From assembly GCF_044324875.1 (NCBI RefSeq), contig NZ_CP172188.1: a stretch of 64,000 nucleotides of DNA; one strand, 5' to 3'. A program made the position numbers and the translations under genes. The stretch is from Escherichia coli (GTDB lineage Bacteria > Pseudomonadota > Gammaproteobacteria > Enterobacterales > Enterobacteriaceae). This document shows, piece after piece, positions 2,946-64,000 of this stretch (position 1 is its first letter; each line of letters begins with the position of its first letter). The notes beneath the pieces were generated by a model that was not told where the DNA came from, ran no database searches, and worked only from the letters and a program-made list of their open reading frames with translations.

Positions 2946-3001
2946 TTGAAAAAACGCCTCAATTTGTTAAAATGATTGAATAATATCAATGAGCGCTGAG
3001 T

Positions 3002-9290: not shown

Positions 9291-9530
9291 TTCATTAACT
9301 CCATACTTTACCATCTTAGCCGCGAGCGCGGTCCCTAAAACCATTAACTTCACTGCACCGTTCCTTCATGCAATCAAAATGACTTTTATGTTATAAAAAT
9401 AATCAGCCAAATCAACATGATTTAGGCCAAATGCGTATTCCGCTCTATTCGATCACGGATTGGCATCGAAGTCCGATCAGCGATTCGCATCCATTCGATC
9501 AACCGGGAACTTAACTTTTTCTACCGCTTT

Positions 9531-10286
9531 TTAACGCGTTTTTTCGCTGCTTTCCACTACCGGGGGATTTTTCCTCAGTGACTCTCCCTGAAGGACCACT
9601 CGGTGTGAGTTATGTACCAGTCTGTCCAGGATGGCATCTGCTGTTGTTGGGTTCTCCATCAGACCATGCCATTTATCTACCGGGAACTGGCTTACCACTA
9701 TCGTGCTGCTTTGTCCGTAACGATCCTCTATGAGCTCCAGAAGGTCATTACACTGGGCGTTACTTAACTGTTCCAGCCCCAGATCGTCCAGGATTAGAAC
9801 CTGTATTTTTTGCAACTGTTTCAGATATTTCAGCCAGCTGCCATCAACACGTCCCTGAGCCAGTTGTTCCAGTAATCGCCCGGTTCTACAGTACCGGACG
9901 CTGTGTTTCTGTCGACATGCCTGTTCGCCCAGCGCATTGGCTATCCAGCTCTTGCCACATCCTGTCGGACCGGTTATCAGCAGGTTTTTCCTGTGGGTTA
10001 TGTAGTGGCCGTTCAGCAGTTCTCTCATCTGTTCAGCCCGCAGACCTCTTGAGGCCGGATAGCGCAGCCCTTCCGGTGTTGCCTGGTATTTCAGGCCGGC
10101 ATTTTTTCTCAACCGTGCCACACGGCTGTTTTCCCTGCTCAGAAGCTCGTCATCAACCAGCAGCGTCAGCCTTTCCTCGAACGACAGTTCGTCGTAGGTC
10201 TGAGGCGTTTCCCGCTGCCGTATCAGGCTCCCGGCCATCGCCGGGAGTTTCAGTTGGGTCAGTTTGTTTAACAGGTTATCACTCAT
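9531..10286 (-). CDS. istB: IS21 helper ATPase IstB
   Basis: Walker A GPTGCGKS, DnaC-like; ORF 9531..10529 but the start matching family length is ATG at 10286 (MSDNLLNKLTQLKLP). Confidence 0.85.
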   Translation of the reverse strand: MSDNLLNKLTQLKLPAMAGSLIRQRETPQTYDELSFEERLTLLVDDELLSRENSRVARLRKNAGLKYQATPEGLRYPASRGLRAEQMRELLNGHYITHRKNLLITGPTGCGKSWIANALGEQACRQKHSVRYCRTGRLLEQLAQGRVDGSWLKYLKQLQKIQVLILDDLGLEQLSNAQCNDLLELIEDRYGQSSTIVVSQFPVDKWHGLMENPTTADAILDRLVHNSHRVVLQGESLRKNPPVVESSEKTR

Positions 10287-10302
10287 ACTGTTGTTCCTTC
10301 TG

Positions 10303-11838: not shown

Positions 11839-12228
11839 AGTGCTCCTGGATTTTCTCTTTCTGGACATTGACGTCTCCACTGGTTTAAACACGGCAATGG
11901 AGACTGTGGTGAAAAGAGTTAATTCCCGGAGTGACTGGCAGGATGCCAATCAATGATCGGAAGCATGCCAAATCGTGATCGATTGTGATGCCAAACTGTG
12001 ATCGGAGATGGATGCCAAATCATGATCGATTCGAATGCCAAACTGCGATCGATTCAGATGCCATTTTGCAGCCAAATTTCTGTCAAAAAATAAAATCCAC
12101 AAAAAGTGGTTGACACTATTTTGGAAATCACAAACTGCACATAATCCATCGCGCTAACGGCTCCCGTTGAAGGTTCTTTTGACGATTAACTTTCAGCCGA
12201 AGCGCGGTAGGGAGTCATAACGCCAAAG

Positions 12229-49848: not shown

Positions 49849-50295
49849 ATGGCTGAAAATTTAAAGGCAAGAGATGGTAACCGCCTGTATAAGGCGCAAT
49901 TGCTTTCCTACTATTATTCACGCCGCGCTGAGTCGGCGATCGGCAAAGGTGCGCGTTTTGTTATCTCTAAGGCGTATTGGTGCAAATCTAGTCTGGTAAC
50001 TGCTAATGGTGCAGGAGGCTGGAATATAGCGGACATTCCACTCGATTTTAAATTGAGTAACGCTCAACAGTTTGCTGTGTCCGATCTGATATTGTCCAGT
50101 GTGGATGGGATTATCACTATCAATGCAGCCTTCCCTCAAGAAAGAATGCCGGATAACACGCCTTACGACTTTAACACGCTTGTGCTTGTGGATGCTGAGG
50201 AACAGGCTTTTGCTGTGCTTTGCACCCAGCAAGACACCCTCTATAAAGGTAAACGTTACAGTATTCTCATGACAATCGAGCAAGTTGAGGGTTGA
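49849..50295 (+). CDS. phage tail protein (148 aa)
   Basis: ORF directly upstream of and overlapping the tail fiber gene start. Confidence 0.4.
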   Translation: MAENLKARDGNRLYKAQLLSYYYSRRAESAIGKGARFVISKAYWCKSSLVTANGAGGWNIADIPLDFKLSNAQQFAVSDLILSSVDGIITINAAFPQERMPDNTPYDFNTLVLVDAEEQAFAVLCTQQDTLYKGKRYSILMTIEQVEG

Positions 50296-50297
50296 TT

Positions 50298-53180
50298 ATG
50301 GGTGCTGATAAAACGAACAACATAATGACACTATCCTCTGGTGTCTCACAGCCGTTGCTTGCTGATGTTCAATATTTCGAACTCTATAGTAGTTCGGCTC
50401 TTAACAGAAAACTTAAAAATATTGTTTTGCCGGGCTTTTACTGTGGATTTGAACCGGTTCCCGGCACAGGGTTGAGTGTCCGTATAACTTCTGAAAACTC
50501 AGAAGGTAAAGGGGCTGCTTCAGTAGATGTAAATAATGTTCAGATATCCGTTCAGCAAATAGAAGATGTGACTGTCTCGGTAAAGGCAGGGGCTACCAAC
50601 ATTATTGTGCTGGAAGCCAATTTTGAACATGGTGTAAAAACGACACAGGTAGATAGCGCATCTTCTGTCAGTGCTGCAAGAATTTACGCGCGTACGGACA
50701 ATACTATTGGGCAGAATCAAATTGAATTATGTCGAGTTATCGTGCCTAGCGGCGCAACGGCTGTGACTAAAGAAATGATTGTGCTTAAATACCGGGTTAA
50801 CCGTGCTGTTGGTGTCGAATTCTCTAATGAAATAAGCAGTACAGAAGAAAGAAAAGCGGCTACACCTCTGGCTGTCAAAACTCTCCATGATTTGGTTGAT
50901 ACAAAAGCCCCGATCAACAGCCCGAATCTGACAGGAACGCCAACAACACCAACAGCGCCACAGGGGACTAATAATACCCAGATCGCAAGCACGGCTTTCG
51001 TTATGGCCGCGATTGCCGCACTTGTAGATTCGTCACCTGATGCACTTAACACTCTGAACGAACTGGCCGCCGCGCTTGGTAATGATCCGAACTTTTCCGC
51101 GACAGTGACTCGCCTGATTGGAGAAAAAGTTGCCAAAGATGGCGACACCATGACAGGTAAACTTAATCTGCCGCAGACCTCTGCATTCGGCATCAATACC
51201 AACAACAGACTGGGGGGGAACTCTCTGACGCTGGGCGATCACGATACCGGAATTAAACAGGAAGGAGACGGCGTATTGTCCGTGTTCGCCAACGGCCAGC
51301 GTGTGTTCCTTTTCACGGAAAGAAGTATTACCTCATTAAAAGAGCTTCTGATAGGGGATGCACGTTATAGCACCGGTGGTGATGTGTATGGCAGTCAGTG
51401 GGGAGACGGTTGGTTGAGTTCCTGGTTAAGTGCTCGCTTTGCAGAGTGTGCCAACGCCAGCCATAACCACCCTTGGAGCCAGATTACCGACGTACCAGCA
51501 GCCAGCCTCACTCAGAGCGGCATTGTACAACTTAGTAGTGCCATCAACAGCACTTCTGAAACATTAGCTGCAACTCCAAAAGCGGTTAAAGCTGCATACG
51601 ATCTAGCAGCCGGAAAGGCACCATCCAGTCATACACACCCCTGGAATCAGATCACTGGTGTGCCAACAGCTTCATTGACAGCGAAAGGCATCACTCAGCT
51701 CAGTAGTGCTACTAACAGCACGTCTGAAGTGCTGGCCGCCACACCAAAAGCTGTCAAGGCTGCATATGACCTGGCTAACGGGAAGTATACAGCCCAGGAT
51801 GCAACCACGACACAAAAAGGGATAGTTCAGCTCAGTAGCGACACCAACAGCACTTCTGAAACATTAGCTGCAACTCCAAAAGCGGTTAAAGCTGCATACG
51901 ATCTAGCAGCCGGAAAGGCACCATCCAGTCATACACACCCCTGGAATCAGATCACTGGTGTGCCAACAGCTTCATTGACAGCGAAAGGCATCACTCAGCT
52001 CAGTAGTGCTACTAACAGCACGTCTGAAGTGCTGGCCGCTACACCGAAAGCGGTTAAAGCTGCATACGATCTAGCAGCCGGAAAGGCACCATCCAATCAT
52101 ATACATCCCTGGAATCAGATCACTGGTGTGCCAACAGCTTCATTGACAGCGAAAGGCATCACTCAGCTCAGTAGTGCCACTAACAGCACGTCTGAAGTGC
52201 TGGCCGCTACACCGAAAGCGGTTAAAGCTGCATACGATCTAGCAGCCGGAAAGGCACCATCCAGTCATACACACCCCTGGAATCAGATCACTGGTGTGCC
52301 AACAGCTTCATTGACAGCGAAAGGCATCACTCAGCTCAGTAGTGCTACTAACAGCACGTCTGAAGTGCTGGCCGCTACACCGAAAGCGGTTAAAGCTGCA
52401 TACGATCTAGCAGCCGGAAAGGCACCATCCAATCATATACATCCCTGGAATCAGATCACTGGTGTGCCAACAGCTTCATTGACAGCGAAAGGCATCACTC
52501 AGCTCAGTAGTGCCACTAACAGCACGTCTGAAGTGCTGGCCGCTACACCGAAAGCGGTTAAAGCTGCATACGATCTAGCAGCCGGAAAGGCACCATCCAA
52601 TCATATACATCCCTGGAATCAGATCACTGGTGTGCCAACAGCTTCATTGACAGCGAAAGGCATCACTCAGCTCAGTAGTGCCACTAACAGCACGTCTGAA
52701 GTGCTGGCCGCTACACCGAAAGCTGTCAAGGCTGCATACGATCTGGCAAACGGAAAACAACCGGCAGATGCCACGCTCACTGCTCTGGCAGGACTTGCCA
52801 CTGCAGCAGATCGGTTGCCTTATTTTACCGGAGCAGACCGCGCAGCGCTGACAACCCTTACAGCTATTGGTCGCGCTATTATCGCTAAGGGCAGTATAAA
52901 AGATGTCCTCAATTACCTTGGTTTAGGAGAAGGCTCGGCGCTACCCGTTGGTGTGCCTGTTCCATGGCCCACCGCCACACCGCCAGCAGGCTGGTTAAAG
53001 TGCGACGGGCGCGCCTTTACAAAAGAACAATATCCTGTTCTGGCCAGAGTCTACCCGACCCTCCGTCTTCCCGATTTACGCGGTGAGTTTATCCGTGGAT
53101 GGGACGACGGGCGAAAAGTTGATACAGGGCGCGATTGCTTTCACGGCAAGGGGTACAAGTTTTTCTCATTACGGAGGTAA
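50298..53180 (+). CDS. tail fiber protein (S-like) ending inside the invertible-region repeat
   Basis: Tandem fiber repeats (ATPKAVKAAYDLA, HTHPWNQITGVPTASLT) and the conserved C-terminal junction PAGWLKCDGRAFTKEQYPVLAR...LRGEFIRGWDDGR. Confidence 0.85.
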   Translation: MGADKTNNIMTLSSGVSQPLLADVQYFELYSSSALNRKLKNIVLPGFYCGFEPVPGTGLSVRITSENSEGKGAASVDVNNVQISVQQIEDVTVSVKAGATNIIVLEANFEHGVKTTQVDSASSVSAARIYARTDNTIGQNQIELCRVIVPSGATAVTKEMIVLKYRVNRAVGVEFSNEISSTEERKAATPLAVKTLHDLVDTKAPINSPNLTGTPTTPTAPQGTNNTQIASTAFVMAAIAALVDSSPDALNTLNELAAALGNDPNFSATVTRLIGEKVAKDGDTMTGKLNLPQTSAFGINTNNRLGGNSLTLGDHDTGIKQEGDGVLSVFANGQRVFLFTERSITSLKELLIGDARYSTGGDVYGSQWGDGWLSSWLSARFAECANASHNHPWSQITDVPAASLTQSGIVQLSSAINSTSETLAATPKAVKAAYDLAAGKAPSSHTHPWNQITGVPTASLTAKGITQLSSATNSTSEVLAATPKAVKAAYDLANGKYTAQDATTTQKGIVQLSSDTNSTSETLAATPKAVKAAYDLAAGKAPSSHTHPWNQITGVPTASLTAKGITQLSSATNSTSEVLAATPKAVKAAYDLAAGKAPSNHIHPWNQITGVPTASLTAKGITQLSSATNSTSEVLAATPKAVKAAYDLAAGKAPSSHTHPWNQITGVPTASLTAKGITQLSSATNSTSEVLAATPKAVKAAYDLAAGKAPSNHIHPWNQITGVPTASLTAKGITQLSSATNSTSEVLAATPKAVKAAYDLAAGKAPSNHIHPWNQITGVPTASLTAKGITQLSSATNSTSEVLAATPKAVKAAYDLANGKQPADATLTALAGLATAADRLPYFTGADRAALTTLTAIGRAIIAKGSIKDVLNYLGLGEGSALPVGVPVPWPTATPPAGWLKCDGRAFTKEQYPVLARVYPTLRLPDLRGEFIRGWDDGRKVDTGRDCFHGKGYKFFSLRR
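51460..52750 (+). repeat. about seven tandem ~165-bp coding repeats inside the tail fiber gene
   Basis: Near-identical 55-aa units repeated; several DNA copies identical over more than 100 bp. Confidence 0.8.
52911..52933. promoter_or_regulatory. candidate invertase crossover site (cix/gix-like), left
   Basis: aattaccttGGTTTAGGAGAAgg at the outer edge of the left inverted repeat; mirrored at 54945..54970. Confidence 0.45.
52920..53133. repeat. left inverted repeat of the invertible region (~215 bp, ~98% identical to 54746..54960)
   Basis: Hand reverse-complement comparison shows only about four mismatches. Confidence 0.8.
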
Positions 53181-53334
53181 TTTCGACATTGGGTCTGGTT
53201 ATTCAATCAATAACTACGACCAATAGTTGTTTCTAACAACCAAGATTTTCCCGACCTTCATGAGGGCCTTTAACGAGGTGATGGGGTTAACATGTAACCA
53301 TTCGTCCTGGTAACATTGTTTAATTATATGGTAT

Positions 53335-53560
53335 GCAGGCTATAAACGTTGGTTTAGGAGAAGCGGCGCTATGCGTTGGTGTGCCTGTTCAGTGGCCCCC
53401 GCCACACCGCCATTGCAGGCTTAATTAAATTGTGAGGGCGCGTTTACAAAAGAACAATATCAGTTCTGGCCAGAAAACCCGACCCTCCGCTTCCCGATTT
53501 AGCGGTGCGATATCCGTGGATCACTATGACGAGACGAAAGGTTGATACACGGGCGTGCCT
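53335..53560. repeat. degenerate third copy of the inverted repeat with its own crossover-like site (plus orientation)
   Basis: About 80-85% identity to 52920..53133 with indels; begins ctataaacgttggtttaggagaag. Confidence 0.55.
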
Positions 53561-54239
53561 CTTTGGAGTTTCGCCCTTGGGACTATCGTATCCGGTTTTG
53601 ATGCGCCGATGCATACCGGAGATTTCAGGTTACGTGGTCGGCTGCCACACAAACGGATGGTGACGCATTTAACCTGATCACCTGGGGGTATAAATGGCAA
53701 AAAGTGGATATTTGATGCATCCCAACCGGTGCACAAAGATATGACTGGCGGACTTACCACCAGCAAAACAGCCTGCCACAATATGGGATTTAACTATATC
53801 GTGAAGGCGGCGTATACCGTTACTGAACGGCATAGAGCCGCAGTGGCGCTGGCCAGCTGCAACGCCAGAAACCTTGTGATATCCAGGCGTTCAGCTCGTC
53901 GATATAATCCAGCACGGCGGGCAGTTTTGCCGTTTCTTCCAGTTTCAGACTGCGACCTGCCCGCCGTTTGGGTTGATAGGTCGACGGCTTCACGCCTGGA
54001 TCCACCCGGCACTGGCGTTGCAGTTGGCAAGTCTCCAGCTCTGCGGCTCTATGCCGGCTCAGTATCACGCCGCCCACGATTACCGTTCCAGGTATCCCAT
54101 GGTGTGGCAGGCTGTTTTGTGGTGGTGTCCGCCGGTAATCACCCGGTTGAGGTGCATCAGAACGGGGTTCCCGTTTTCCGTTTATACCGTCTCCCGCGGT
54201 GATTAGGGTTACATGCGTCCCAAATCCGTTCAGTGTGGC

Positions 54240-54480
54240 AGTCCGAAACCACGTAACCCGATATCCTCCGGTATGCATTATCATCACGAACCGGAGTACG
54301 ATAGTCCCAAGGGCGAGATACTGAAAGTAGCGCACGCCCGGTATCAACCTTTCGTCCGTCATATCCACGGATAAACTCACCGCGTAAATCGGGAAGACGG
54401 ATCGGTTAGACTCTGGCCAGAACAGGATATTGTTCTTTTGTAAACGCGCCCTCACAATGTAACCAGCCTGCTACGGCGGT
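54240..54480. repeat. degenerate fourth copy of the repeat (minus orientation), inverted partner of 53335..53560
   Basis: Reverse complement aligns to the 53335..53660 copy, including gcccttgggactatcgta. Confidence 0.5.
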
Positions 54481-54564
54481 GTGACGGTGATACCCTTCGC
54501 ATACAGGCTTCTGATAGAGGTCAGAATAGTAGCCTGCATACCATTGTCTGACATTACCACGATG

Positions 54565-54960
54565 TTACGAGGATCGCTGAATGTTGTCCCGTCCGGCATT
54601 TTGAAGGCCCTCACGAAGGTCTGTAATGGAATCTTCATTGTTGAATCCCATGCCGACTATCCCCGAGGTTCCCGTAGTGTCCTGGTTATAATAATCCAGC
54701 ATTGCTGTTCTTAACAGCGTTGCCCCTTGTGCGGACAGCAACTTACGTCCTGTATCAACTTTGCGCCCGTCGTCCCATCCACGGATAAACTCACCGCGTA
54801 AATCGGGAAGACGGAGGGTCGGGTAGGCTCTGGCCAGAACAGGATATTGTTCTTTTGTAAAGGCGCGCCCGTCGCACTTTAACCAGCCTGCTGGCGGTGT
54901 GGCGGTGGGCCACGGAACAGGCACACCAACGGGTAGCGCCGAGCCTTCTCCTAAACCAAC
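54565..54960 (-). CDS. alternative tail-fiber C-terminal cassette (start-less; joined to the fiber gene only after inversion)
   Basis: Minus-strand frame encodes the same PVPWPTATPPAGWLKCDGR...RGWDDGRKVDTGR junction followed by a different 57-aa tail. Confidence 0.5.
   Translation of the reverse strand, partial: VGLGEGSALPVGVPVPWPTATPPAGWLKCDGRAFTKEQYPVLARAYPTLRLPDLRGEFIRGWDDGRKVDTGRKLLSAQGATLLRTAMLDYYNQDTTGTSGIVGMGFNNEDSITDLREGLQNAGRDNIQRSS
54746..54960. repeat. right inverted repeat of the invertible region
   Basis: Reverse complement matches 52920..53133. Confidence 0.8.
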
Positions 54961-54970
54961 GTTTATCTCT
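54945..54970. promoter_or_regulatory. candidate invertase crossover site, right
   Basis: ccTTCTCCTAAACCaacgtttatctc adjacent to the invertase gene. Confidence 0.45.
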
Positions 54971-55025
54971 CAAATCCTCCCCACATTATCTCAGTACTTT
55001 AACCACTCAAAAGGGAGTATTTTTA

Positions 55026-55598
55026 ATGCTGATTGGCTACATACGTGTGTCAACAAATGACCAAAACACAGATTTGCAACGCAATGCATTAATGTGCGCA
55101 GGATGTGAACAGATTTTTGAGGACAAAATGAGCGGAACCAAGTCGGAACGACCAGGCCTGAAACGCGCTTTAAAGTGCCTTAAAAGAGGGGATACATTGG
55201 TGGTCTGGAAGCTGGATCGGTTGGGTAGAAGAATGAAACACCTCATTGCTCTCACAGAAGAGCTACGCGCAAAAGGTGTCAATTTTCGCAGTCTGACGGA
55301 TTCAATCGATACCAGCACTCCGATGGGAAGGTTCTTTTTTCATATGATGGGTGCACTGGCAGAAATGGAGCGTGAACTGATAGTTGAGCGCACGCTGGCA
55401 GGACTGGCTGCTGCGCGATCACAAGGAAGAGTTGGAGGACGTCGCCCGAAACTGACGAAGGAGCAGCATGAGCAGATCGCAAGATTGCTCCAGAAAGGGT
55501 ATGACAGAAAGCGGCTGGCAATTATCTATGATATTGGACTGTCAACGATCTACCGCTATCACCCTGTTGGGACTGTCATAACGCAACCTGAAATGTAA
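55026..55598 (+). CDS. cin: Cin/Gin/Hin-family serine DNA invertase
   Basis: MLIGYIRVSTNDQNTDLQRNAL...LVVWKLDRLGR...FRSLTDSIDTS collinear with Mu Gin as recalled; ATG 55026 (ORF track 54897 extends into the repeat). Confidence 0.9.
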   Translation: MLIGYIRVSTNDQNTDLQRNALMCAGCEQIFEDKMSGTKSERPGLKRALKCLKRGDTLVVWKLDRLGRRMKHLIALTEELRAKGVNFRSLTDSIDTSTPMGRFFFHMMGALAEMERELIVERTLAGLAAARSQGRVGGRRPKLTKEQHEQIARLLQKGYDRKRLAIIYDIGLSTIYRYHPVGTVITQPEM

Positions 55599-55814
55599 TT
55601 CTTTTTCAAATAATGAAACGCCGCGTGGATGCCATTTATCGCACAAGATAGAGTGCATTTATCGCGCGGCGCATCATCATTTGTTGATATGCGAATGTAT
55701 CCAATAAGCATATGTCTCCCTTGTATGCTAAGGATACGATCCTAGAAGATGTCCTGTAAGGAAATAACAAACTGACTAAGTTAGTGGCGCATTAGATGTT
55801 ATTTCTGGAGGGGT

Positions 55815-56141
55815 ATGTTTGCAGATTATGAAAATCTGGCTGTAGTAGTCATAACATCCCTACTAAGTGGAACCGGCGTATTCCTTCTCGGAGTTAGAGA
55901 CGGGCGCATTTCTGCGTCCCTGCTCAATCTTGCGAGTGAATTGTTTACTGCGGTAACAGCCGGGCTTGCGGGGTATGGGGTGGCGGTTAGCCAAGAATGG
56001 CCTGAAGGTATCATTTTCTGCGTTGTTCTGATTGCCAGTAACAACGGTAGTGAAATTTTACAGGGCTTGAAGTCCAGAGCTAGTAACGTCTTGAATCTCT
56101 TAAGCGTAATAGCGAATGGGGGAAAAGGTGGAGAGAAATAA
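55815..56141 (+). CDS. holin-like small membrane protein (LydA-like candidate)
   Basis: 108 aa with hydrophobic helices; first gene of an operon that continues into DarA-like genes, as in the P1 dar operon. Confidence 0.45.
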   Translation: MFADYENLAVVVITSLLSGTGVFLLGVRDGRISASLLNLASELFTAVTAGLAGYGVAVSQEWPEGIIFCVVLIASNNGSEILQGLKSRASNVLNLLSVIANGGKGGEK

Positions 56142-56587
56142 TGGGTAACTTTGGAAATTATTTCATTTTTATCATGGCATTTGTTGCCATCATTGACCGT
56201 TTCATTTTTCGTCGCAAGAGTGTTGAGATTTTGAGTATTGGTGACGCTGTAGTGAAAGAATCCGCTATAGCATTTCCTGTTTCGCTACGTGTTAAGCGAA
56301 GCTGGGTCAGCAATGCTCAAATCGAATATTGGTTGCAAGACCTGAAAAATCCATCTGTGGTTATTTCAGGGAAAACGCGACCAGTTGACGCCTCAAAACG
56401 CGGTGAGAGAGAAGAGTATTTGCTCATCGATACGAAATATCTTGAGCCAACGAAGTGGGATCTGAAAGTCACATTGACTAACGGTAACTGCCGACTGAAT
56501 CCGCTTTATCGCATTTTCCCTATCAATGACTGCATAGAGCGCCAGTTTACGATCGAAAAGCGTAAAGGAGACTGGGATGTCAAATAA
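56141..56587 (+). CDS. membrane-anchored protein (LydB-like candidate)
   Basis: N-terminal TM helix (FIFIMAFVAIIDRFIF); coupled to the upstream gene. Confidence 0.4.
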   Translation: MGNFGNYFIFIMAFVAIIDRFIFRRKSVEILSIGDAVVKESAIAFPVSLRVKRSWVSNAQIEYWLQDLKNPSVVISGKTRPVDASKRGEREEYLLIDTKYLEPTKWDLKVTLTNGNCRLNPLYRIFPINDCIERQFTIEKRKGDWDVK

Positions 56588-57197
56588 GAATAATTATGTT
56601 CTTCTTAATTATGATGAGTTAAACGAAAAGGGGCTGGCAAAACTCGTCAAAGAAATCAGCAAAGGTGGTTACAAGATAGCGAGGGTGATCCCTGCAAGTA
56701 ATGGCAGGAAGAAAGATGGGATCATGACGCGCACGTTTACCCTTATTGGTATTGATGAACAGACAATGGAAGTTCAGGTTAACGATACCGGTGATATATC
56801 TGGGATCAAACTGAATGGTAAAACAGTACCGTTCAAGCCAGTAAAAACAATGTCGGCTTTGGGGCAATCTCTTGCGGCTTTATTTAATCGCGGAGCAACT
56901 TCTTTCCAGAAGTCATTAGCTCGAAAACTTGCTCGTGCAGCAAAAAATATTGATGACGGAAATAAGAAGCGGCAGGGAGTTAAATCTAACGCTCAGAAAT
57001 TAGCTGAAGCGAAAGAATCACGTGATGCACTCCGTGAAGATATCGCTAATGCTAACGACAAACTGTCTAAACTCCAGAGCAAGTCAGACAAAGTAATACA
57101 AGATACGGGTAACGTTAAAGCTGCCTTGTCTCAGGAAGTAGCTAAGACACGTGCTCTTAAAGAAGAAATCGCGCGCCTGGAGGATGAGCATGATTAA
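56577..57197 (+). CDS. Hdf-like protein candidate (206 aa)
   Basis: Position before the DarA-like gene; C-terminal coiled coil. Confidence 0.35.
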   Translation: MSNKNNYVLLNYDELNEKGLAKLVKEISKGGYKIARVIPASNGRKKDGIMTRTFTLIGIDEQTMEVQVNDTGDISGIKLNGKTVPFKPVKTMSALGQSLAALFNRGATSFQKSLARKLARAAKNIDDGNKKRQGVKSNAQKLAEAKESRDALREDIANANDKLSKLQSKSDKVIQDTGNVKAALSQEVAKTRALKEEIARLEDEHD

Positions 57198-59115
57198 CAA
57201 TCCTTTACGAATTAATATTCAGTCTACTTTTGCTGATACGATCCCCGGCTATATGCCAAGTCGCTGGTCTTCAGAAGAATTAAGCGAAGATGACCTGATT
57301 TTTGAGGCGGCGACCTTAGAAGATATTGAGCTTGCCTATATGGGCAATGAAATTCTGGTTGTGTCTGACGAAGCTATGTTTGAGTCCATAACTACAACCA
57401 GAATTCGGTTAGCTCAAACAATGCGAGCTTTCGTCCGTGCGCTGAATCGTGGCCTGAATGGTACGAATATTATGGCAGGGACTGATGAAGCTGGGACCGA
57501 TGAAAATGGACGTAATTGTATTGGAGGTGCGATTATCGGTCGTGTACGTCGGGTAGCTAATATCCCTGTTTTGACCGCGCAGATACCGCTTACTGACGGG
57601 CAGAGTACAAGCATAATTTTCCACTCTCCAACAGCTGACGGGGCAAAAATAAAGAGTAACGACGAGCTTGTTGCATTTCAGTTTTTACTTAATAAACGTA
57701 ACGTAACTCACGTTGTCGCCCCGATTGGTGGGAGAGATGTTTCTTTAAGCCAGGTATGCCAGGCGCTATCTAATTTGATTGAGCGTAACAGCGAAAAATT
57801 TAAGAAAGCAAAAGAGCGCCAGGACAAAATGAAGGCAGATATTGAGAGTTATCTCAATGAAGCAGATAAACTGGCAGAAGAACGGTCAATAATGATTGAT
57901 CAGGTGGAAGTTGCGCAACGTGGGCTGACTGAAAAGCGTGCTGCTCTTACGGAGATGCAAAAAAAACTTGATGCCCAGAAAGCCATCAACGAGGAATTAC
58001 AAGCAAAACGCGATAAATTGTTGTCTGCTAAAGGTGAAAAAACGAAAGAACGAGCGTTTAGTGACCAGCTGCGACATGTAAAACATAATCTTGCCATTGA
58101 CGGAAAAACAGTGCTGGATAATGGCGCTGAAGTTAATTATGTCACGTCCGGCAGTGATAATTTCGTTACGATAGTAGCACCTGAAGGTAAATTCAGTATT
58201 GATGCCAGTGCTGTCAAAGGAGGCAGTTTGGCAGATGCTGCAACTAAATTACTTAAAGCCTACCGAGAGCATAACGCAGATAAATATAAAGTTGATGTGT
58301 TACCAGGCCAGCAGGAAGACCCCGAACCACCACAGACAGACCCCGAGACGAACCCAGTATCACAACCAGAGAGCCAGGATGTAGGTAAATACCACTATGC
58401 ACTTCAATCTCGCCCGGCTGGTGTTGGTGCTGTGCCGGATGGAAATAAAGCCGTGCTTGATCGTCCTGACCAGGCTGATCAGTATTACGAATATGCTCGT
58501 CACGGTATCATTACGTATGACCGTAAACTGACAGATGAAGAAGTCAGCCAGTACGAGTTGCTCTATCTTCCTGATGAAGATGAGCTGAAAGATTTTGCAG
58601 GCCAATTGGTTGTGTCCAGCATGTCGAAACATATTGATGGCTATGTAGACCTGTTTGGCAGTGACCTGAAAACATTCAAGGCGCAAGTGAAAATTCTTTT
58701 CCGCAAAGCGTTTCCAAATGTGGCGTATCCACTTGGTGATGGGGAGAACCTTTTCATTATGGACGTGTATAACGCCCTTCAAAATCATTCAAGCGAAGTA
58801 AAAACAGAGCATGTGGTTGAGCCGGAATCACAACCACAACCAGCACCAGAACAGGAGCCGGAGCCAGAAGAAGTTGGTGAATCAGCAAGTGAAGCTGATC
58901 AGGAAGCAGATAAAGCGCTGGAGTACCTGAAATCCGTGCCGGAGCAGTTTACATCCCGCGATCTGACGGTCATCAGTGCTGAACTTGATCATGTGCAGGA
59001 AGCAGCGAACGCTCTAATCAGTGCAGGTCGATACGACGAGAACGAAGCCACTGTGGGTGCAGCAGTTGACTACCTGATCAATATTCTGGCTGAAATTCAG
59101 CAGGGAGGTGTTTAA
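57190..59115 (+). CDS. DarA-like capsid-associated antirestriction protein candidate (641 aa)
   Basis: Size and operon position as in the P1 darA operon recalled from literature; ATG 57190 with GGAGG RBS. Confidence 0.4.
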   Translation: MINNPLRINIQSTFADTIPGYMPSRWSSEELSEDDLIFEAATLEDIELAYMGNEILVVSDEAMFESITTTRIRLAQTMRAFVRALNRGLNGTNIMAGTDEAGTDENGRNCIGGAIIGRVRRVANIPVLTAQIPLTDGQSTSIIFHSPTADGAKIKSNDELVAFQFLLNKRNVTHVVAPIGGRDVSLSQVCQALSNLIERNSEKFKKAKERQDKMKADIESYLNEADKLAEERSIMIDQVEVAQRGLTEKRAALTEMQKKLDAQKAINEELQAKRDKLLSAKGEKTKERAFSDQLRHVKHNLAIDGKTVLDNGAEVNYVTSGSDNFVTIVAPEGKFSIDASAVKGGSLADAATKLLKAYREHNADKYKVDVLPGQQEDPEPPQTDPETNPVSQPESQDVGKYHYALQSRPAGVGAVPDGNKAVLDRPDQADQYYEYARHGIITYDRKLTDEEVSQYELLYLPDEDELKDFAGQLVVSSMSKHIDGYVDLFGSDLKTFKAQVKILFRKAFPNVAYPLGDGENLFIMDVYNALQNHSSEVKTEHVVEPESQPQPAPEQEPEPEEVGESASEADQEADKALEYLKSVPEQFTSRDLTVISAELDHVQEAANALISAGRYDENEATVGAAVDYLINILAEIQQGGV

Positions 59116-59483
59116 TGACCATCTCTGTTTTAGACCGCCTGAAATTAGGTAAAGAGCTATCAGATCTAATGCAGGCGCAGAAAACTGCGCCAGTATTGCA
59201 ACGCGTCACCATTGGTAAGCAGATTGTTGATGTGATGCTGAAATTGGGCCTGGGGACTGCCGCGCAACCGGCAGCGGAACCGCAACAACAGGCTGATCCT
59301 GTTGTAGATGAAGTCCCTAAGATAGTGACTGACTTCCTGGGCGGTGTGTTCACAAAGTCCACACAAATGGAATTTATTGATGCGCTGCGTGGGATCTCAA
59401 ACTATGTTGGCGAGTTCCTTACGTTGGAGCAGGCTAAAGAGCAGACCATAAGCTGGGTGAAAGCTAACGGTTATGCCGGGTAA
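59115..59483 (+). CDS. DdrA-like small protein candidate (122 aa)
   Basis: Overlapping start with the upstream gene stop; operon context. Confidence 0.35.
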   Translation: MTISVLDRLKLGKELSDLMQAQKTAPVLQRVTIGKQIVDVMLKLGLGTAAQPAAEPQQQADPVVDEVPKIVTDFLGGVFTKSTQMEFIDALRGISNYVGEFLTLEQAKEQTISWVKANGYAG

Positions 59484-59577
59484 TCAAAAGGGGCTGAAAT
59501 GCCCCTTTCACTTATCTGTTCTCACATAAATCACACACTTTTTACACTCACAGCTTTCTCTATAGTTGGAGTGTATT

Positions 59578-60963
59578 TTGAACAAATCAGTTACTTCTGC
59601 GCTTTCCGAGGCCGCAGATATTAACAGCGTCATTGCTCTGGTTTCTTCATTAGAGAGGAAAGAAACACGCCTGGGGCGAAGTAGCTACGTAGTCACCAGC
59701 AAAGGTGCAGAGGTAAAGACGGCTTTTAAGGTCGTTGATGCCAGCAGTCTGATCATTTCGAACAACCTTGACGGTACGATTAACCCGGCCTTCCCGGAAG
59801 AACTCCAACCACGAGATCGTACCCGGCTATCCAGCAAACTCCAGGTTAACCGTATTGCCTCCAATTTACGCCCGGCACAATTAACGGATTCCGGTATGAG
59901 CAGCCACGGAGCGCCGATAGTTGGTCCGGACAACGTTGTTGAATCCGGCAACGGAAGGAGTATGGGTATCTGGCGTGCCTATGAGCAAGGACAGGCGGAT
60001 GAGTATCGCCAGTACCTGATCGACCATGCGAAAGAGTTTGGTCTGAATCCTGACGAAATTTCGCAAATGTCTATGCCTGTACTGGTGCGAGAAAGACTCA
60101 CAGATGTAGACCGCGCTCAATTTGCCCGCGATTCAAACATTAGTGATCTGCAAGAGATGGCAGCAAGTGAAAAAGCGTATGCGGATGCGCAATTTCTCAC
60201 TGAGAGCGTCATGGCGCTATTTAATCCTTCAGATGATGGAAATCTGCTGGCGCGGTCCAATGATGCGTTTATTCGTGCGTTTTTGCGCGAAATTGGCGAT
60301 ACAGCGACGGCAGGCTTGCTTACTGCCGATGGGCGTCCCACGAAACAGCTTATCGATCGCATCCAGAATGCAATTTTTGCCAAAGCGTACAAGGATGAAA
60401 GGCTTGTTCGGCTGGTGTCGGAAGAGCCAGATCCGGAAATGCGTAATATCCTGACCGCATTAAATACGGCAGCCAGCGATTTTGCGCAAATGCAGTCGCT
60501 GTCTGGCGACGCTCACCATGACGCAGTAACAGGCTTAGTGGACGGTATAGAGCAGGTTAATGGCCTGGATACACAGGCGATAGCAGCACTCCAGGAAGCA
60601 ATTAATCTTGTTCGTGAAGCCAAAGACAACGGTCAGGCCGTTGAAGAAGTGATCGCCCAAAGGGGGTTATTCGGCGACAGTACACCGGAAGCTGAGGCAT
60701 TGGCGTTATTCATCGTAGCAAATAATCGCAGTGCGAAGCGTATGGGGGCAGCATTCAAAAAAATGGCGCAAAAAATCAACGACGAGCTGACTCATAAACA
60801 ACAGGCATTGGGCGATATGTTCGGCGGTGGCGATGTTGATCTGCGTCGTATTTTGTCTGCTGTATCTGATGAAATTGAGGGTGAATTTGGCGAAGGGAAA
60901 GGTCTGAACTTTGCTATGTTTGAAAATTCTACAGATCTAAATAATTGCCGTACGGAAAACTAA
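59578..60963 (+). CDS. hypothetical virion/antirestriction-operon protein (about 460 aa)
   Basis: Long ORF with no ATG near its 5' end; probable TTG start at 59578 after GGAG. Confidence 0.4.
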   Translation: MNKSVTSALSEAADINSVIALVSSLERKETRLGRSSYVVTSKGAEVKTAFKVVDASSLIISNNLDGTINPAFPEELQPRDRTRLSSKLQVNRIASNLRPAQLTDSGMSSHGAPIVGPDNVVESGNGRSMGIWRAYEQGQADEYRQYLIDHAKEFGLNPDEISQMSMPVLVRERLTDVDRAQFARDSNISDLQEMAASEKAYADAQFLTESVMALFNPSDDGNLLARSNDAFIRAFLREIGDTATAGLLTADGRPTKQLIDRIQNAIFAKAYKDERLVRLVSEEPDPEMRNILTALNTAASDFAQMQSLSGDAHHDAVTGLVDGIEQVNGLDTQAIAALQEAINLVREAKDNGQAVEEVIAQRGLFGDSTPEAEALALFIVANNRSAKRMGAAFKKMAQKINDELTHKQQALGDMFGGGDVDLRRILSAVSDEIEGEFGEGKGLNFAMFENSTDLNNCRTEN

Positions 60964-61027
60964 ACCAACCGCTGAAATCACATACTGATTATGCTGCCGC
61001 AAAACTGGAAACAATTTGCGGTGATTC

Positions 61028-62710
61028 ATGGCAACGAAAGACAAAAACAAAGGCTTTCTGTCAGCATTGAAGAAAGCCTTCAACGGTGGTGATGTTACGC
61101 CCGCCGATCCGGTCGTTTTTACGAGCGGGCATAGTGTCGTTGCTCGTTCCGGCCTGTCTGCTTTACGTCCAGGTATACTGGGGAGCAACAGCGATGGCAT
61201 GACGAGTGCAGCAGATTCAATTTCTTTATCCGCTGAACTGCCCGGCGAGCGCCTGCAAAAGTACAACATCCTGGAAACGATGGCTAAAAGCCCGACTATC
61301 TCGACGGCTTTAAATATTCACATTGCACATGCGCTTGCGCCTTCAAAAAAAACCGGACAAGCATTCATCCTTTCGCCAAAGGATGGTTCCGATGCTGAGG
61401 CAGTAAGTAGATGTGAAGAGTTAACTGCTGATTTGGGGGCGATGATTAATGACGGACTTCCTTCATGGGCCATGATTATGGCGATCTTTGGGGTGTCTTA
61501 TGTCCGCCCTTATGCTGAACAGGGCAGGGGGATAACAGGCATTGAGTCCAGTTATTACACTCTGCCACACTTCGTCCAGGAGTTTTATCGTGGTAGCCAG
61601 CTGGTAGGTTTCAGTGGTGATTACATCCTGGATACGCATAGTTTGCGCAGAGTAATAACCGAACCGTGGAATCTGGTTTCCATGAAAAATCCCTATTGGA
61701 CGCCACAGCATAAAGTTATTCCGGTTAGCTACGGCACAAAAGGGTACTCACTGTTAAGTGATCAGGCTGATAAGCCGTTAATGGAGACGCAGAATTACGG
61801 GACTTCATTCCTGGAATACAGCTATGAACCTTACCTTAATTTATGTGCTTCGCTCGCCGCGCTGAAATCAACGCGAAATAATGCAGCCAAAATTGACCGC
61901 CTGATTGCTCTTACGACGAACACACTGGACCCGGTTAATGCGGCGAACTATACGCGTGGCGTCAGCCAGGCATTGAAGCGTCATAGTGACTTGGTGGCGC
62001 AAAGGTCGATTAATGCCAACGCTATTCCGACTGTGCTTAACCATCTGATACCTGTTATGGGAGACGGGAAGAACGGCATCACCATTGATACGCAATCCAT
62101 ACCCGCAGATATCAGTGGTATCGAAGACGTTATGTTTCACCTCCGGCAGCTTGCTGCAAGCCTCGGCATTGACGCAACAATGCTTGGCTGGGCTGATCAG
62201 ATGAGCGGAGGGCTTGGAGAAGGCGGCTGGCAGCAAACTGCTATCCAGGCTGCATTGCGTGCGAACTGGATCAGACAGGCCGCCCAGCGAACTATTTATC
62301 GGCTTCTGGACATTCACCTCGCTTATAAATACGGCAAGGTTTACACCGAAACAAACCGCCCTTATGACGTGCAATTCAACTCAATGAACACTGCTATCCA
62401 GGAAGAGGAAAACCGAGAACTGGATGCACGCGCCAACTTTGTTGCTGTCATCTCCCAAATTATGGACCAGATCCAGAATAACCCGAAACTGGCTGGTAGC
62501 GACGCGTTTATGCGTTATCTGTTCACTGAGCAGTTGCACATCGACGATGACACTCTCAACACCATGATCAAAGAGTTTAAGGCGAATGAATCAGAGCAAA
62601 ACAACGAGCATGGTATGTACGAATCCGCGCCGTTGTCGTCCGGTGACGATCCGGAAAACTGGACGCCAGAACAGTTAATAAACTTTGCAAAATTTGTGAT
62701 GAGCAATTAA
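61028..62710 (+). CDS. portal protein candidate (560 aa)
   Basis: Size and position directly upstream of a prohead protease/scaffold-like gene. Confidence 0.5.
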   Translation: MATKDKNKGFLSALKKAFNGGDVTPADPVVFTSGHSVVARSGLSALRPGILGSNSDGMTSAADSISLSAELPGERLQKYNILETMAKSPTISTALNIHIAHALAPSKKTGQAFILSPKDGSDAEAVSRCEELTADLGAMINDGLPSWAMIMAIFGVSYVRPYAEQGRGITGIESSYYTLPHFVQEFYRGSQLVGFSGDYILDTHSLRRVITEPWNLVSMKNPYWTPQHKVIPVSYGTKGYSLLSDQADKPLMETQNYGTSFLEYSYEPYLNLCASLAALKSTRNNAAKIDRLIALTTNTLDPVNAANYTRGVSQALKRHSDLVAQRSINANAIPTVLNHLIPVMGDGKNGITIDTQSIPADISGIEDVMFHLRQLAASLGIDATMLGWADQMSGGLGEGGWQQTAIQAALRANWIRQAAQRTIYRLLDIHLAYKYGKVYTETNRPYDVQFNSMNTAIQEEENRELDARANFVAVISQIMDQIQNNPKLAGSDAFMRYLFTEQLHIDDDTLNTMIKEFKANESEQNNEHGMYESAPLSSGDDPENWTPEQLINFAKFVMSN

Positions 62711-62723
62711 CCGGAGGGAAATA

Positions 62724-63722
62724 ATGCAATCACTGAATACTGTTACGGATCGCTTCTCCCTGGTAGAGAAAATCCGCAAACACACACCGCAGAACAACCG
62801 AAATTACGTCATTCAGTCGGTACGAGACACATTCAACTCGCCAGAAACAAAAGAGCGTATCGCGCTGGGTGAGATGTATGGTTATTACGGTCATGGTCGC
62901 CGGGCGATGCACTATAACAAAACGAAAAGCCTGAACTTGCCGGAAGTCTCTGTTGTGATGGTAGATGGGAAGCCTGTTGTATTGGAGAACGTGCCATCCA
63001 ACAGGACTATCGACATTTCGATTGACGACAACGGCATTGTTACCCATACGCAGGAAATACTGGATACAGACACCGGGCGTATTGTTCAGGGGATGATAAA
63101 TTCTGGCGCCGGTGGTTGGTCATGGGCTACATCTGGTCCAGACTCATCGGTATCCCTGGTAAAGTCTTTCCACGGCTTTGATTACGTAACTGTGCCTAAC
63201 TATATCAGCCTCGACAAGAAAAGCCTGATGCTTGAATCAGCAGAAGAGCGCGATGCGGCTATTCATGCAGCACTTATCGAACAAGGTTTTACCGATAACG
63301 CTGCCACGGATCTGGTTCACCACTTTTCAGCGATGAAAAATCAGCAAGCCATGCTCGAGTCTGCACATCGTGAAGCCCTGGAATCAGAATTAATGCTCCT
63401 TGAAGCGGAAAATATGCAACTTCGCGACAAATTACGAAACCAGGCTGCAATGATGGAAAGCCAGGGCGAAGATGCGAAGAAATGCCGCCGTATTTTGCGT
63501 GATGCTATCCAGGAAATGCCTGTTTTTATCAGTGCAGAACAACGCCGGGCGCTCTGCCGTATGCAGTCTGAAGATGATGCTCGCATAGTGGCTGCGATGC
63601 TTGAATCTCTGGGGGCAAATGCGACTTATGGCTTACCGATATCAGGCAAGAAAGAGGCGGAGTTATCACCGAAGGAGAACAAAAATACCACACCGTTACT
63701 CTTCGTTTCGCGACGGGCGTAA
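62724..63722 (+). CDS. prohead protease/scaffold-like protein candidate (332 aa)
   Basis: Gly-rich segments (GYYGHGRR, SGAGGWSW) followed by a coiled-coil scaffold-like C-terminus; follows the portal candidate. Confidence 0.4.
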   Translation: MQSLNTVTDRFSLVEKIRKHTPQNNRNYVIQSVRDTFNSPETKERIALGEMYGYYGHGRRAMHYNKTKSLNLPEVSVVMVDGKPVVLENVPSNRTIDISIDDNGIVTHTQEILDTDTGRIVQGMINSGAGGWSWATSGPDSSVSLVKSFHGFDYVTVPNYISLDKKSLMLESAEERDAAIHAALIEQGFTDNAATDLVHHFSAMKNQQAMLESAHREALESELMLLEAENMQLRDKLRNQAAMMESQGEDAKKCRRILRDAIQEMPVFISAEQRRALCRMQSEDDARIVAAMLESLGANATYGLPISGKKEAELSPKENKNTTPLLFVSRRA

Positions 63723-63734
63723 CCGTTACATGAA

Positions 63735-63754
63735 GTTAAATTTCTAACATAGTG
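63735..63754. promoter_or_regulatory. operator-like motif copy
   Basis: gttaaatttctaacatagtg downstream of the prohead gene. Confidence 0.3.
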
Positions 63755-63835
63755 TATTTATATACACTGTTGATCCTGTTCGATGTGATCGAGTAGGATC
63801 GCGGTCACTGCTCCGGTAGCGACTGCCAAAAAAGC

Positions 63836-63862
63836 AAAAGCCGCTGAGAAGCGGCTTTTGGG
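63836..63862 (+). terminator. rho-independent terminator
   Basis: aaagccgct-gaga-agcggcttt hairpin followed by TTT. Confidence 0.55.
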
Positions 63863-64000
63863 TGTATAAATCCTCGGACATAGATTTATACGGTAGATAG
63901 ATTTTTTTCACGGAACTATCTGGTGAGTATTTTAAATTCAGTTTCAGTAACTTTCAACACTTCTGAGTATAAAAACAACACTGAATACCACAAAAAAATC

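Follow-up and report, generated by a model that had tools for sequence, protein, structure and literature searches.

The darA operon (LPdar) of bacteriophage P1 comprises lydA-lydB-hdf-darA-ddrA-ddrB. The P1 proteins are packaged in the head, DarA is processed by Pro, and the proteins are co-ejected with the DNA and protect it in cis from type I restriction-modification (PMC12810830, PMC9024508). P1 DarA and Hdf are also structural: 55 pairs of them line the inside of the capsid, and most heads are small when they are lost (PMC12810830); Pro is thought to cleave both DarA and the capsid protein (PMC12810830). The C-terminal half of P1 DdrB (residues ~450-995) is a proposed zincin-like metallopeptidase region, and Iyer et al. 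suggested that this half of the protein processes DdrB before packaging (PMC5512222). The number of P1 late promoters that depend on Lpa is given as 11 (PMC10695390). In the GenBank record of phage D6 (NC_050154 / MF356679), orf30-orf25 carry the labels "similar to P1 lydA/lydB/hdf/darA/ddrA/ddrB". Here we compare with these systems a locus found in a 64-kb stretch of Escherichia coli DNA (the window).

The six-gene locus and its counterparts in P1 and D6

Six intact genes lie on the plus strand within 55815-60963 of the window:

55815-56141, + strand: lydA, holin, 108 aa (BLASTP against P1 LydA, PHROG 1527)
56141-56587, + strand: lydB, LydA antagonist and lysis-timing protein, 148 aa (Pfam LydB, BLASTP, PHROG 1898)
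56577-57197, + strand: hdf, paralogue with a DarA_N domain, 206 aa (Pfam DarA_N, BLASTP, PHROG 1620)
57190-59115, + strand: darA, internal head protein, 641 aa (Pfam DarA_N and DarA_C, BLASTP, PDB 9ukm_I)
59115-59483, + strand: ddrA, 122 aa (BLASTP against P1 DdrA, PHROG 1855)
59578-60963, + strand: ddrB, short form, 461 aa (Pfam ddrB-ParB, BLASTP against P1 DdrB)

Sequence comparison indicates, with a probability that we put at roughly 0.9, that this locus and the P1 darA operon are orthologous, the locus being the version of the phage D6 lineage and residing on a D6-like E. coli phage-plasmid. The first five genes, lydA to ddrA, overlap successively by 1, 11, 8 and 1 nt, and a 94-nt gap separates ddrA from ddrB. 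Each of the six products has a one-to-one P1 homologue, encoded in the same order (BLASTP E-values from 1e-24 to 0, with which tblastn agrees); DdrB reaches 64% identity, and the other five products 33-43%. Pfam matches above gathering scores were LydB, DarA_N (in both Hdf and DarA), DarA_C and ddrB-ParB, and the PHROGs were those named holin, lysis-determining protein, Hdf-like, DarA ('released from the phage upon host infection') and DdrA-like. Given the BLASTP E-values against P1 and a dN/dS against D6 of 0.08-0.28 across the six genes, we take them to be real genes rather than chance open reading frames. The first-pass annotation had proposed the P1 arrangement lydA-lydB-hdf-darA-ddrA from gene sizes and order, and every open reading frame was found at the place and of the size it gave. 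Its Dar-type assignment had been made from synteny, and BLASTP, tblastn, Pfam, PHROGs and the match to 9ukm_I agree with it; comparison with the P1 proteins by BLASTP, which it had set as the means of refuting the assignment, found similarity for all six. A reader using gene sizes and order alone had thus identified the operon correctly.

The holin gene lydA and its antagonist lydB head the operon, as in the P1 Dar system. LydA is 43% identical to P1 LydA (BLASTP, E = 1e-24) and matches the holin PHROG (E = 8e-39), and these two results are decisive for its assignment as a predicted holin despite a match to Pfam PF16083 of 18 bits, under the 28.4-bit cut-off; its amino acid sequence is 100% identical to that of D6. 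LydB matches Pfam LydB (E = 1e-24) and is 34% identical to P1 LydB (BLASTP, E = 2e-30). Both proteins have a strong N-terminal hydrophobic segment (residues 7-28 in LydA and 4-23 in LydB); Kyte-Doolittle values over 19 residues peak at 2.16 and 1.74, respectively.

The gene directly 5′ of darA, hdf, shares its last 8 nt with the beginning of darA. Its product matches Pfam DarA_N (E = 7e-18, 65 bits) and, over its full length, the Hdf-like PHROG (E = 7e-76), and is 40% identical to P1 Hdf across residues 4-147 (BLASTP, E = 4e-32). We place the darA start at the ATG at 57190, as in D6; the longest open reading frame begins at a GTG at 57151. DarA has the same full-length architecture as P1 DarA, with DarA_N at 4.9e-40 (136.6 bits) and DarA_C at 9e-19 (68.2 bits) against cut-offs of 27. 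It is 39% identical to P1 DarA over residues 36-641 (621 columns; BLASTP, E = 2e-143), matches the solved P1 chain PDB 9ukm_I, 'Defense against restriction protein A' (E = 2.4e-124), and is 96.9% identical to D6 DarA by global alignment (94.9% by tblastn). Directly 3′ of darA, as in the P1 Dar system, lies ddrA, whose product is 33% identical to P1 DdrA across 118 aa (BLASTP, E = 2e-23) and matches the DdrA-like PHROG (E = 5e-50); a Pfam search returned no family for it.

Genes, order, overlaps and start codons are the same in D6 orf30-orf25 as in the window. Nucleotide identity to D6 is 96.3% across 55700-61100, and amino acid identity is 94-100% for the six products. D6 also shares with the window the short DdrB, the hairpin, the promoter-like motifs and the downstream prt-pro genes discussed below. 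Most of the window aligns with D6; identity is mainly 90-99% and drops to 76-90% in a few segments. Taking a D6-like phage-plasmid to be collinear with D6 at ≥90% nucleotide identity, with a darA operon directly 5′ of prt-pro, we find the element to be one. The darA-to-pro segment occurs in 120 PLSDB records, 98 of them at ≥95% identity and one, NZ_OY754373.1, at 100.0%. D6-like plasmid prophages in PLSDB come from E. coli, Salmonella and Shigella (for example NZ_OY754373.1, NZ_AP019805.1, pYU39_89-type), and some annotate 'ddrB'. Since the D6 record annotates the same genes and about 120 PLSDB plasmids hold copies, one of them 100% identical, the locus is already known and carries little weight as a discovery.

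The surroundings of the operon include three further features:

55677-55711, - strand: remnant of a D6/P1-type cin gene, comprising 35 nt of its 5′ end (megablast boundary, inverted repeat)
61028-62710, + strand: prt, portal protein, 560 aa (50% identity to P1 Prt, portal PHROG 1497, D6 annotation)
62724-63722, + strand: pro, prohead protease, 332 aa (42% identity to P1 Pro; 'head processing protease' in the D6 GenBank record)

The position of prt-pro directly after ddrB is the D6 arrangement and not that of P1, in which prt-pro adjoin darB and are separated from ddrB by hxr, isaB, IS1, isaA, ssb, lyz and lydD/E. Here the first-pass annotation held in part: a large protein does precede the portal and protease genes in the window, but in P1 prt-pro lie elsewhere, and the protein corresponds to residues 2-442 of P1 DdrB only. 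The lydC and hxr genes that flank the P1 operon upstream and downstream, respectively, are both absent, and a tblastn search of the 64-kb window for DarB, Ulx, Hxr, LydC, Lyz and Ssb gave no match. In D6, homologues of darB and ulx lie 3-10 kb past pro, and the equivalent position falls beyond the 3′ end of the window.

Upstream of lydA, D6 contains an Sv/U/U′/Sv′ C-segment and a divergent cin of P1 type, which is 98% to P1 Cin, whereas the window retains just 35 nt of the D6 cin and has instead a JJ1886-type invertase and shufflon. This co-oriented invertase and short-cassette shufflon are 98% identical to a P2-like prophage in the chromosome of E. coli JJ1886. At 55677 a megablast boundary divides JJ1886-prophage-like sequence from D6-like sequence, and the cin remnant and the 5′ end of the resident invertase gene are inverted repeats of each other over 35 nt. 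Judged from these alignments, the remnant marks the left mosaic junction, where the D6-like backbone starts.

Candidate late promoters and a hairpin

The motif AAATCACAnAC-N4-TAnnnT recurs upstream of lydA, ddrB, prt and other late operons. The features of this kind at the locus, together with a hairpin, are as follows:

55762-55782, + strand: candidate late promoter of lydA, AAATAACAAAC-tgac-TAAGTT (PWM rank, D6 conservation)
59487-59508, + strand: G+C-rich hairpin, AAAGGGGC-tgaaat-GCCCCTTT (folding against shuffles)
59528-59548, + strand: candidate late promoter of ddrB, AAATCACACAC-tttt-TACACT (perfect motif match)
60975-60995, + strand: candidate late promoter of prt-pro, AAATCACATAC-tgat-TATGCT (motif search and PWM)

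The lydA candidate, which is kept in D6, ends 33 nt before the ATG, a position equivalent to that of P1 LPdar; in P1 and the window alike, a position of the late-promoter type falls 30-50 nt upstream of lydA. When a PWM was trained on six other sites, with the lydA site left out, the lydA site ranked 7th of 127,960 positions and was the top match outside the training set. The ddrB candidate ends 30 nt before the TTG start, is present in D6 with one mismatch, and shares its motif with the sites that precede prt, pmgB/sit, R/S and the capsid gene, among others. The prt-pro candidate is identical in D6 and equivalent in position to P1 LPpro. For the six-site pattern, 1.55 matches would be expected in the window and 6 were counted; for a relaxed pattern, loosened after the lydA site had been seen, the figures are 0.03 and 7. 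Every copy in the window is on the plus strand and upstream of late operons. Overall, the motif occurs upstream of lydA and of 8 other late operons. Applied to D6, the PWM found 11 sites, each of which lies upstream of late genes, darB included, and points the same way as they do.

The AAATCACAnAC element differs from the P1 -22 box, AAGTGACTT, which was not found upstream of lydA in usable geometry. A search for the P1-type late promoter AAGT[GT]A[CT]T-N4/5-TAnnnT gave 8 matches against 4 expected, which is near chance, and no lydA site, and for these reasons we prefer the D6-type motif. On the strength of this different, recurrent motif, the candidate promoters may depend on Lpa, whose gene lies outside the window. 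A sigma-70 scan found no consensus upstream of lydA, and overall fewer sites than in shuffled sequences. We had also considered a palindrome upstream of lydA, ACTAAGTTAGT, as a regulator site, and dropped it as a single, non-recurrent copy in the window.

The hairpin sits right after the ddrA stop codon and is kept in D6. The fold of 59478-59530 has a free energy of -17.9 kcal/mol (z = -3.8), and none of 200 shuffles was as good. A terminator scan did not flag the hairpin because it lacks a clean T-run, and an Rfam scan of 52500-64000 and ARAGORN returned no RNA family and no tRNA, respectively. Possible roles for the hairpin are those of an attenuator, a terminator or a stabiliser of an RNA 3′ end. 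Whereas in P1 the gap between ddrA and ddrB is 12 nt with neither a promoter nor a hairpin annotated, the 94 nt in the window hold candidates for both. From this layout a separate late promoter, placed behind the hairpin, appears to serve ddrB, and the 'operon' probably consists of two late transcription units.

A short DdrB and a variable junction ahead of prt

The ddrB start is the same TTG as in D6; an open reading frame called mechanically from the TTG at 59566 would encode 465 aa. DdrB matches Pfam ddrB-ParB (PF18763, E = 2.6e-42, 144 bits), keeps the GNGR motif in alignment with P1 DdrB, and is made up of a DdrB-type ParB/Srx-like domain and a helical region. At 461 aa, as against 995 in P1, it is 64% identical by BLASTP to the P1 protein over residues 2-442 of 995. 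P1 DdrB residues 443-995 have no tblastn match in the 64-kb window, and D6 has no match past about residue 475. The DdrB of the window thus lacks the proposed metallopeptidase half found at the C-terminus of the P1 protein; this half is a feature of P1 DdrB and not of the Pfam family. An antisense open reading frame within ddrB (60117-60392, - strand) is 61% identical to P1 iddB, and we did not take it as a gene because conservation of ddrB itself predicts such likeness and because it is shorter than that of P1.

Immediately around the end of ddrB lies a further feature:

60924-60974, + strand: variable junction, a cargo hot spot (break in D6 homology; cargo in relatives)

This stretch takes in the final 13 ddrB codons together with the spacer ahead of the prt promoter. 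Homology to D6 ends at 60923 and restarts at 60975 with 100% identity, so that the last ~13 ddrB codons differ between the two. D6 has orf24 (a weak DUF4145 match) and orf23 between ddrB and prt, whereas the junction in the window is 'empty'. In other plasmids it is occupied by TnpB, IS100, DUF4145, XRE-family genes or HicA, and in some it is likewise empty.

A tentative further reading, which we regard as doubtful though worth stating, is that D6-type loci represent a natural 'minimal' Dar system with a defence range of its own and a late-activator specificity distinct from that of P1 Lpa. It draws on the stand-alone DdrB of 461 aa, with the ParB-like module alone and a candidate promoter of its own behind the hairpin. 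The identity of DdrB to P1, 64% as against 33-43% for its neighbours, is noted alongside. The diverged set of Hdf, DarA and DdrA may address a range of host defences other than that of P1. Were the 'minimal' reading true, the N-terminal module would be the packaged, active part of DdrB, autoproteolysis would not be needed, and AAATCACAnAC-N4-TAnnnT would reflect a D6-specific late-activator specificity.

Proposed function and alternative readings

By analogy with P1, the products of the locus would serve as co-injected head proteins that counter type I restriction, as determinants of head size and as timers of lysis. Late in infection, LydA as holin and LydB as its antagonist would determine when lysis occurs. 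Hdf and DarA, paired on the inner capsid surface, would enter the procapsid first and favour full-size heads in assembly; Pro would trim the DarA N-terminus, and DdrA and DdrB would be recruited next, together with DarB and Ulx from a separate locus outside the window. All these head proteins would then be ejected with the DNA, giving the DNA of that head protection in cis from type I restriction enzymes. Points that weigh against this picture are the identity to P1 of only 33-43% in five of the six products, the missing C-terminal half of DdrB, the lack of a usable P1-type -22 box before lydA and of darB and ulx in the window, and the damaged look of the adjacent tail-fibre inversion region.

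It is also conceivable, although we think it rather unlikely, that D6-type Hdf, DarA, DdrA and DdrB are capsid-assembly or internal structural proteins with no antirestriction activity, or with activity against something other than type I enzymes, so that 'Dar' would be a name inherited from P1. The genes do lie immediately 5′ of those for the portal and protease, P1 DarA and Hdf are themselves structural (PMC12810830), identity to P1 is only 33-43%, and the searchable literature yielded no experiment on D6. All four Dar-type head proteins are, however, kept under purifying selection, and D6 retains darB and ulx, which have no known role in assembly. Moreover, assembly and antirestriction are not alternatives, because the same P1 proteins do both.

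That the operon is a silent relic in a decaying, non-inducible plasmid prophage strikes us as very unlikely. In its favour are the neighbouring tail-fibre shufflon, which has no intact cassette open reading frame and in which S is frameshifted 15 codons past the crossover block, and the IS200/IS605 and IS21 insertions found relative to D6 elsewhere in the window. Against it, the six genes and the adjacent prt and pro have all stayed intact, dN/dS is well under 1, and the locus is fully identical to that of another plasmid. The damaged region, moreover, has ~78% identity, with ~10 indel columns in every 100 nt, and gives way abruptly to flanks of 98-100%, a signature of sequence noise unlike gradual decay; if the damage to the tail-fibre inversion region is real, the element may make no infectious particles. 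Chance synteny of unrelated genes, for which we found no point in favour, is refuted as an explanation of the resemblance to P1 by the E-values for all six pairs and the above-threshold Pfam matches.

Taken as the D6-lineage orthologue of the P1 darA operon, the locus documents how D6 departs from P1, with a half-size DdrB, a separate candidate promoter for ddrB, adjacent portal and protease genes and a cargo hot spot. It also supplies a late-promoter motif that can be tested in D6-like phage-plasmids, which are widespread and of interest as vehicles of gene transfer in E. coli and Salmonella.

The darA operon and its counterparts in P1 and D6

Six open reading frames (ORFs) of 108, 148, 206, 641, 122 and 461 amino acids (aa) lie on the plus strand within 55815–60963, an interval that runs exactly from the start of lydA to the stop of ddrB. 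The first-pass annotation, which had read this interval from gene sizes and order as a P1-like Dar operon opening with small membrane proteins, was accurate in its coordinates, sizes and order, and the N-terminal segment is strongly hydrophobic in both LydA and LydB. Successive genes from lydA to ddrA overlap by 1, 11, 8 and 1 nt, a gap of 94 nt separates ddrA from ddrB, and ORFs of 560 and 332 aa come next. Pairwise protein comparison with the P1 reference (NC_005856) revealed similarity for all six products, contrary to the lack of P1 similarity that would have refuted the first-pass reading.

Similarity of the six products to their P1 namesakes
LydA: 43% identity, E = 1e-24
LydB: 34% identity, E = 2e-30
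Hdf: 40% identity, E = 4e-32
DarA: 39% identity across 621 columns, E = 2e-143
DdrA: 33% identity, E = 2e-23
DdrB: 64% identity over P1 residues 2–442 of 995 only, E = 0

Scores above the Pfam gathering thresholds were obtained for LydB, DarA_N (in both Hdf and DarA), DarA_C and ddrB-ParB; the holin model reached 18 bits with LydA, below its cut-off. PHROGs names are consistent for all products, and DarA matches the solved chain of P1 DarA (9ukm/9vz0; E = 2.4e-124). The 560-aa product is the portal protein (50% identical to P1 Prt) and the 332-aa product the prohead protease (42% to P1 Pro). The earlier observation is thus confirmed and its interpretation as a P1-type darA operon supported; homology, gene order, integrity and promoter-like signals are all evident at the locus.

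At the DNA level the locus shares 96.3% identity with Escherichia phage D6, whose GenBank and RefSeq records label the same six genes 'similar to P1 gene lydA, lydB, hfd, darA, ddrA, ddrB', with prt and pro next. The segment from darA to pro occurs in 120 PLSDB plasmids from E. coli, Salmonella and Shigella, and is 100.0% identical in NZ_OY754373.1, from a hen isolate. Because dN/dS relative to D6 is 0.08–0.28 across genes, we take the genes as maintained by selection.

We infer the function of the locus from P1, in which LydA is annotated (NC_005856) as a holin and LydB as its antagonist. The P1 Dar proteins are internal to the head, exit the capsid with the DNA and protect it in cis against type I restriction, with DarB, Ulx and DdrB active against EcoB and EcoK (PMC12810830; PMC9024508). 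Incorporation starts with Hdf and DarA, on which all other Dar proteins depend; by cryo-EM, 55 DNA-contacting DarA–Hdf pairs line the inside of the capsid at penton–hexon junctions. DarA apparently loses its first ~69 residues to the protease Pro, and loss of either DarA or Hdf shifts assembly to small heads (PMC12810830). DarA of the window aligns from P1 residue 36 to the C-terminus, spanning the modelled hexon-binding, helical and penton-binding regions. The most economical reading is that the Dar proteins encoded here would act in the same way as those of P1.

Departures from P1 and D6

The likeness to P1 holds for the six-gene order from lydA to ddrB but not for what follows. P1 has prt and pro next to darB, with hxr, isaB, IS1, isaA, ssb, lyz and lydD/E between them and ddrB, whereas here they come directly after ddrB. 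We found neither lydC nor hxr of P1 in the window; in D6, homologues of darB (43% to P1) and ulx (46%) are encoded 3–10 kb beyond pro, past the 3′ end of the window. DdrB here consists of the N-terminal module only, a ParB/Srx-like domain with its GNGR motif conserved and a helical region. The C-terminal half of P1 DdrB, to which Iyer et al. (PMC5512222) assign a zincin-like metallopeptidase with a proposed role in auto-processing of the protein, was not found in the window, nor in D6 past about P1 residue 475.

Identity to P1 jumps from 33–43% in the neighbouring products to 64% in DdrB, which points to a mosaic junction at the ddrA–ddrB boundary. In support of this, dS relative to D6 is 0 for lydA and 0.01–0.08 for lydB through darA but 0.26–0.29 for ddrA and ddrB. 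With prt at 0.02 and pro at 0.19, the pattern is patchy and indicates recent recombination patches in the late region. An antisense ORF inside ddrB (60117–60392, minus strand; 91 aa) resembles the 132-aa 'iddB' of P1 (61% over 80 aa); conservation of ddrB alone explains the similarity, which speaks against iddB as a genuine conserved gene.

Homology to D6 falls to 80% over the last 215 nt of ddrB, is absent over the 51 nt of 60924–60974, and is back at 100% from the very start of the prt promoter motif. At this junction D6 (9264–10355) carries two additional ORFs, of which one matches DUF4145 weakly, Salmonella plasmids likewise carry DUF4145 and a hypothetical gene, and other D6-like plasmids carry TnpB, IS100, XRE-family genes or HicA. 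The ddrB–prt junction is a cargo or insertion hot spot across D6-like plasmids, empty in the window and most relatives.

The 64-kb window is mostly collinear with D6, at 90–99% identity for the most part and 76–90% in a few segments. Collinearity is broken at, among other places, two elements inserted relative to D6 and the tail-fibre region.

Features at breaks in collinearity with D6
2520–4180: IS200/IS605 element (TnpA 2520–2945, minus; TnpB 3002–4180, plus)
9531–11949: IS21-family element (IstA-like 10303–11949, minus; IstB 9531–10529, minus)
50292–53180: tail-fibre gene S, with tandem 168-nt (56-aa) repeats at 51509–52780 (...HPWNQITGVPTASLTAKGITQLSSATNSTSEVLAATPKAVKAAYDLAAGKAPS...), called by the repeat finder as six overlapping 300-nt copies of 85–93% identity
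52915–54964: tail-fibre multiple-inversion region, interior 53150–54600
54441–55677: invertase (55026–55598, plus) and adjoining shufflon arm, ~98% identical to a chromosomal P2-like prophage adjoining aroA, in E. coli JJ1886 among other genomes

D6-like sequence opens at 55677, where the initial 35 nt of a cin gene lie on the minus strand. To its left, as far as the tail-fibre gene, intact stretches are ~98% identical to the chromosomal P2-like prophage of JJ1886 and include the co-oriented invertase; whole-query identity is 87%, lowered by a degraded interior. Replacement has removed the cin and C-segment of the D6 type, and its junction lies within the initial 35 nt of the invertase genes (35-nt inverted repeat, 55026–55060/55677–55711); a tail-fibre host-range module has been exchanged between a P1-like and a P2-like phage.

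The inversion region holds four copies of a crossover or constant block of 120–217 nt (52915 and 53342, plus; 54357–54472 and 54746–54962, minus) and nested inverted repeats centred near 53940. Intact relatives have C-terminal cassettes of ~143–160 aa, most ending ...NIAFNYIVRAA, and one tail-fibre assembly gene, whereas no intact cassette ORF is present here, and S is frameshifted 15 codons past the crossover block, with a stop at 53180. The interior is 75–85% identical to relatives with ~10 indel columns per 100 nt, and its flanks 98–100%. Its appearance is that of an artefact of mixed inversion isomers, made in consensus building or polishing, and not that of evolution, although real decay is a conceivable alternative.

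Candidate late promoters and transcription units

Upstream of lydA we found neither a sigma-70 consensus nor the P1 −22 box (AAGTGACTT). The sequence AAATCACA[CT]AC-N4-TAnnCT is common to the spacers preceding ddrB and prt, and as a search pattern it has 6 sites in the window against 1.55 expected, all on the plus strand and 30–95 nt 5′ of ORFs (the prt, ddrB, R/S, pmgB/sit and major-capsid homologues and an ORF at 12240). With a PWM built from these six, the site at 55762–55782, ending 33 nt 5′ of the lydA ATG, ranks 7 of 127,960 positions and is the best non-training match. A relaxed pattern gives 7 matches against 0.03 expected but was widened after the lydA site had been seen, and the independent test of that site is the PWM rank only. 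Applied to the complete D6 genome, the same PWM gave 11 sites. Each precedes a late or morphogenetic operon and points in its direction, with darB and the lysozyme gene among the genes so placed; for P1, 11 late promoters dependent on Lpa have been reported (PMC10695390).

Recurrent motifs in the window
12125, 17489 (weaker), 27972 (weaker), 31834, 42092, 49790, 55762, 59528, 60975, plus strand: AAATCACAnAC-N4-TAnnnT, 30–95 nt 5′ of late/morphogenetic operons
4963, 5614, 9388, 29821, 31760, 40570, 63733: 18-nt motif AAATTAnTTTTCTAACAT

From the window sites, the PWM rank of the lydA site and the 11 well-placed D6 sites, we read AAATCACAnAC-N4-TAnnnT as the candidate D6-type late promoter, distinct from the P1 AAGTGACTT box. 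P1 itself has one good copy (AAATCACAAAGTACATACCGT; NC_005856 23572–23592, minus; PWM 19.8 bits), 39 nt 5′ of lydC, a place without an annotated late promoter.

Between ddrA and the ddrB motif the sequence can form a stable hairpin (−17.9 kcal/mol, z = −3.8); in P1, only 12 nt separate ddrA from ddrB, with no annotated signal. The likely layout is late promoter–lydA–lydB–hdf–darA–ddrA–hairpin, late promoter–ddrB, and late promoter–prt–pro.

The seven copies of AAATTAnTTTTCTAACAT compare with 0.39 expected in the window, and the one at 63733 comes right after pro, on the side towards repL. In reverse complement (ATGTTAGAAAAnTAATTT) the motif resembles the P1 C1-operator consensus, and the seven copies are probably the D6-type C1 repressor operators.

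The operon as such is no novelty: the D6 records annotate it, and many deposited plasmids carry it. Its inferred regulatory anatomy is the part new in this analysis, and the split transcription units and recurrent motif proposed from it are, like the short DdrB, modest refinements that can be tested.
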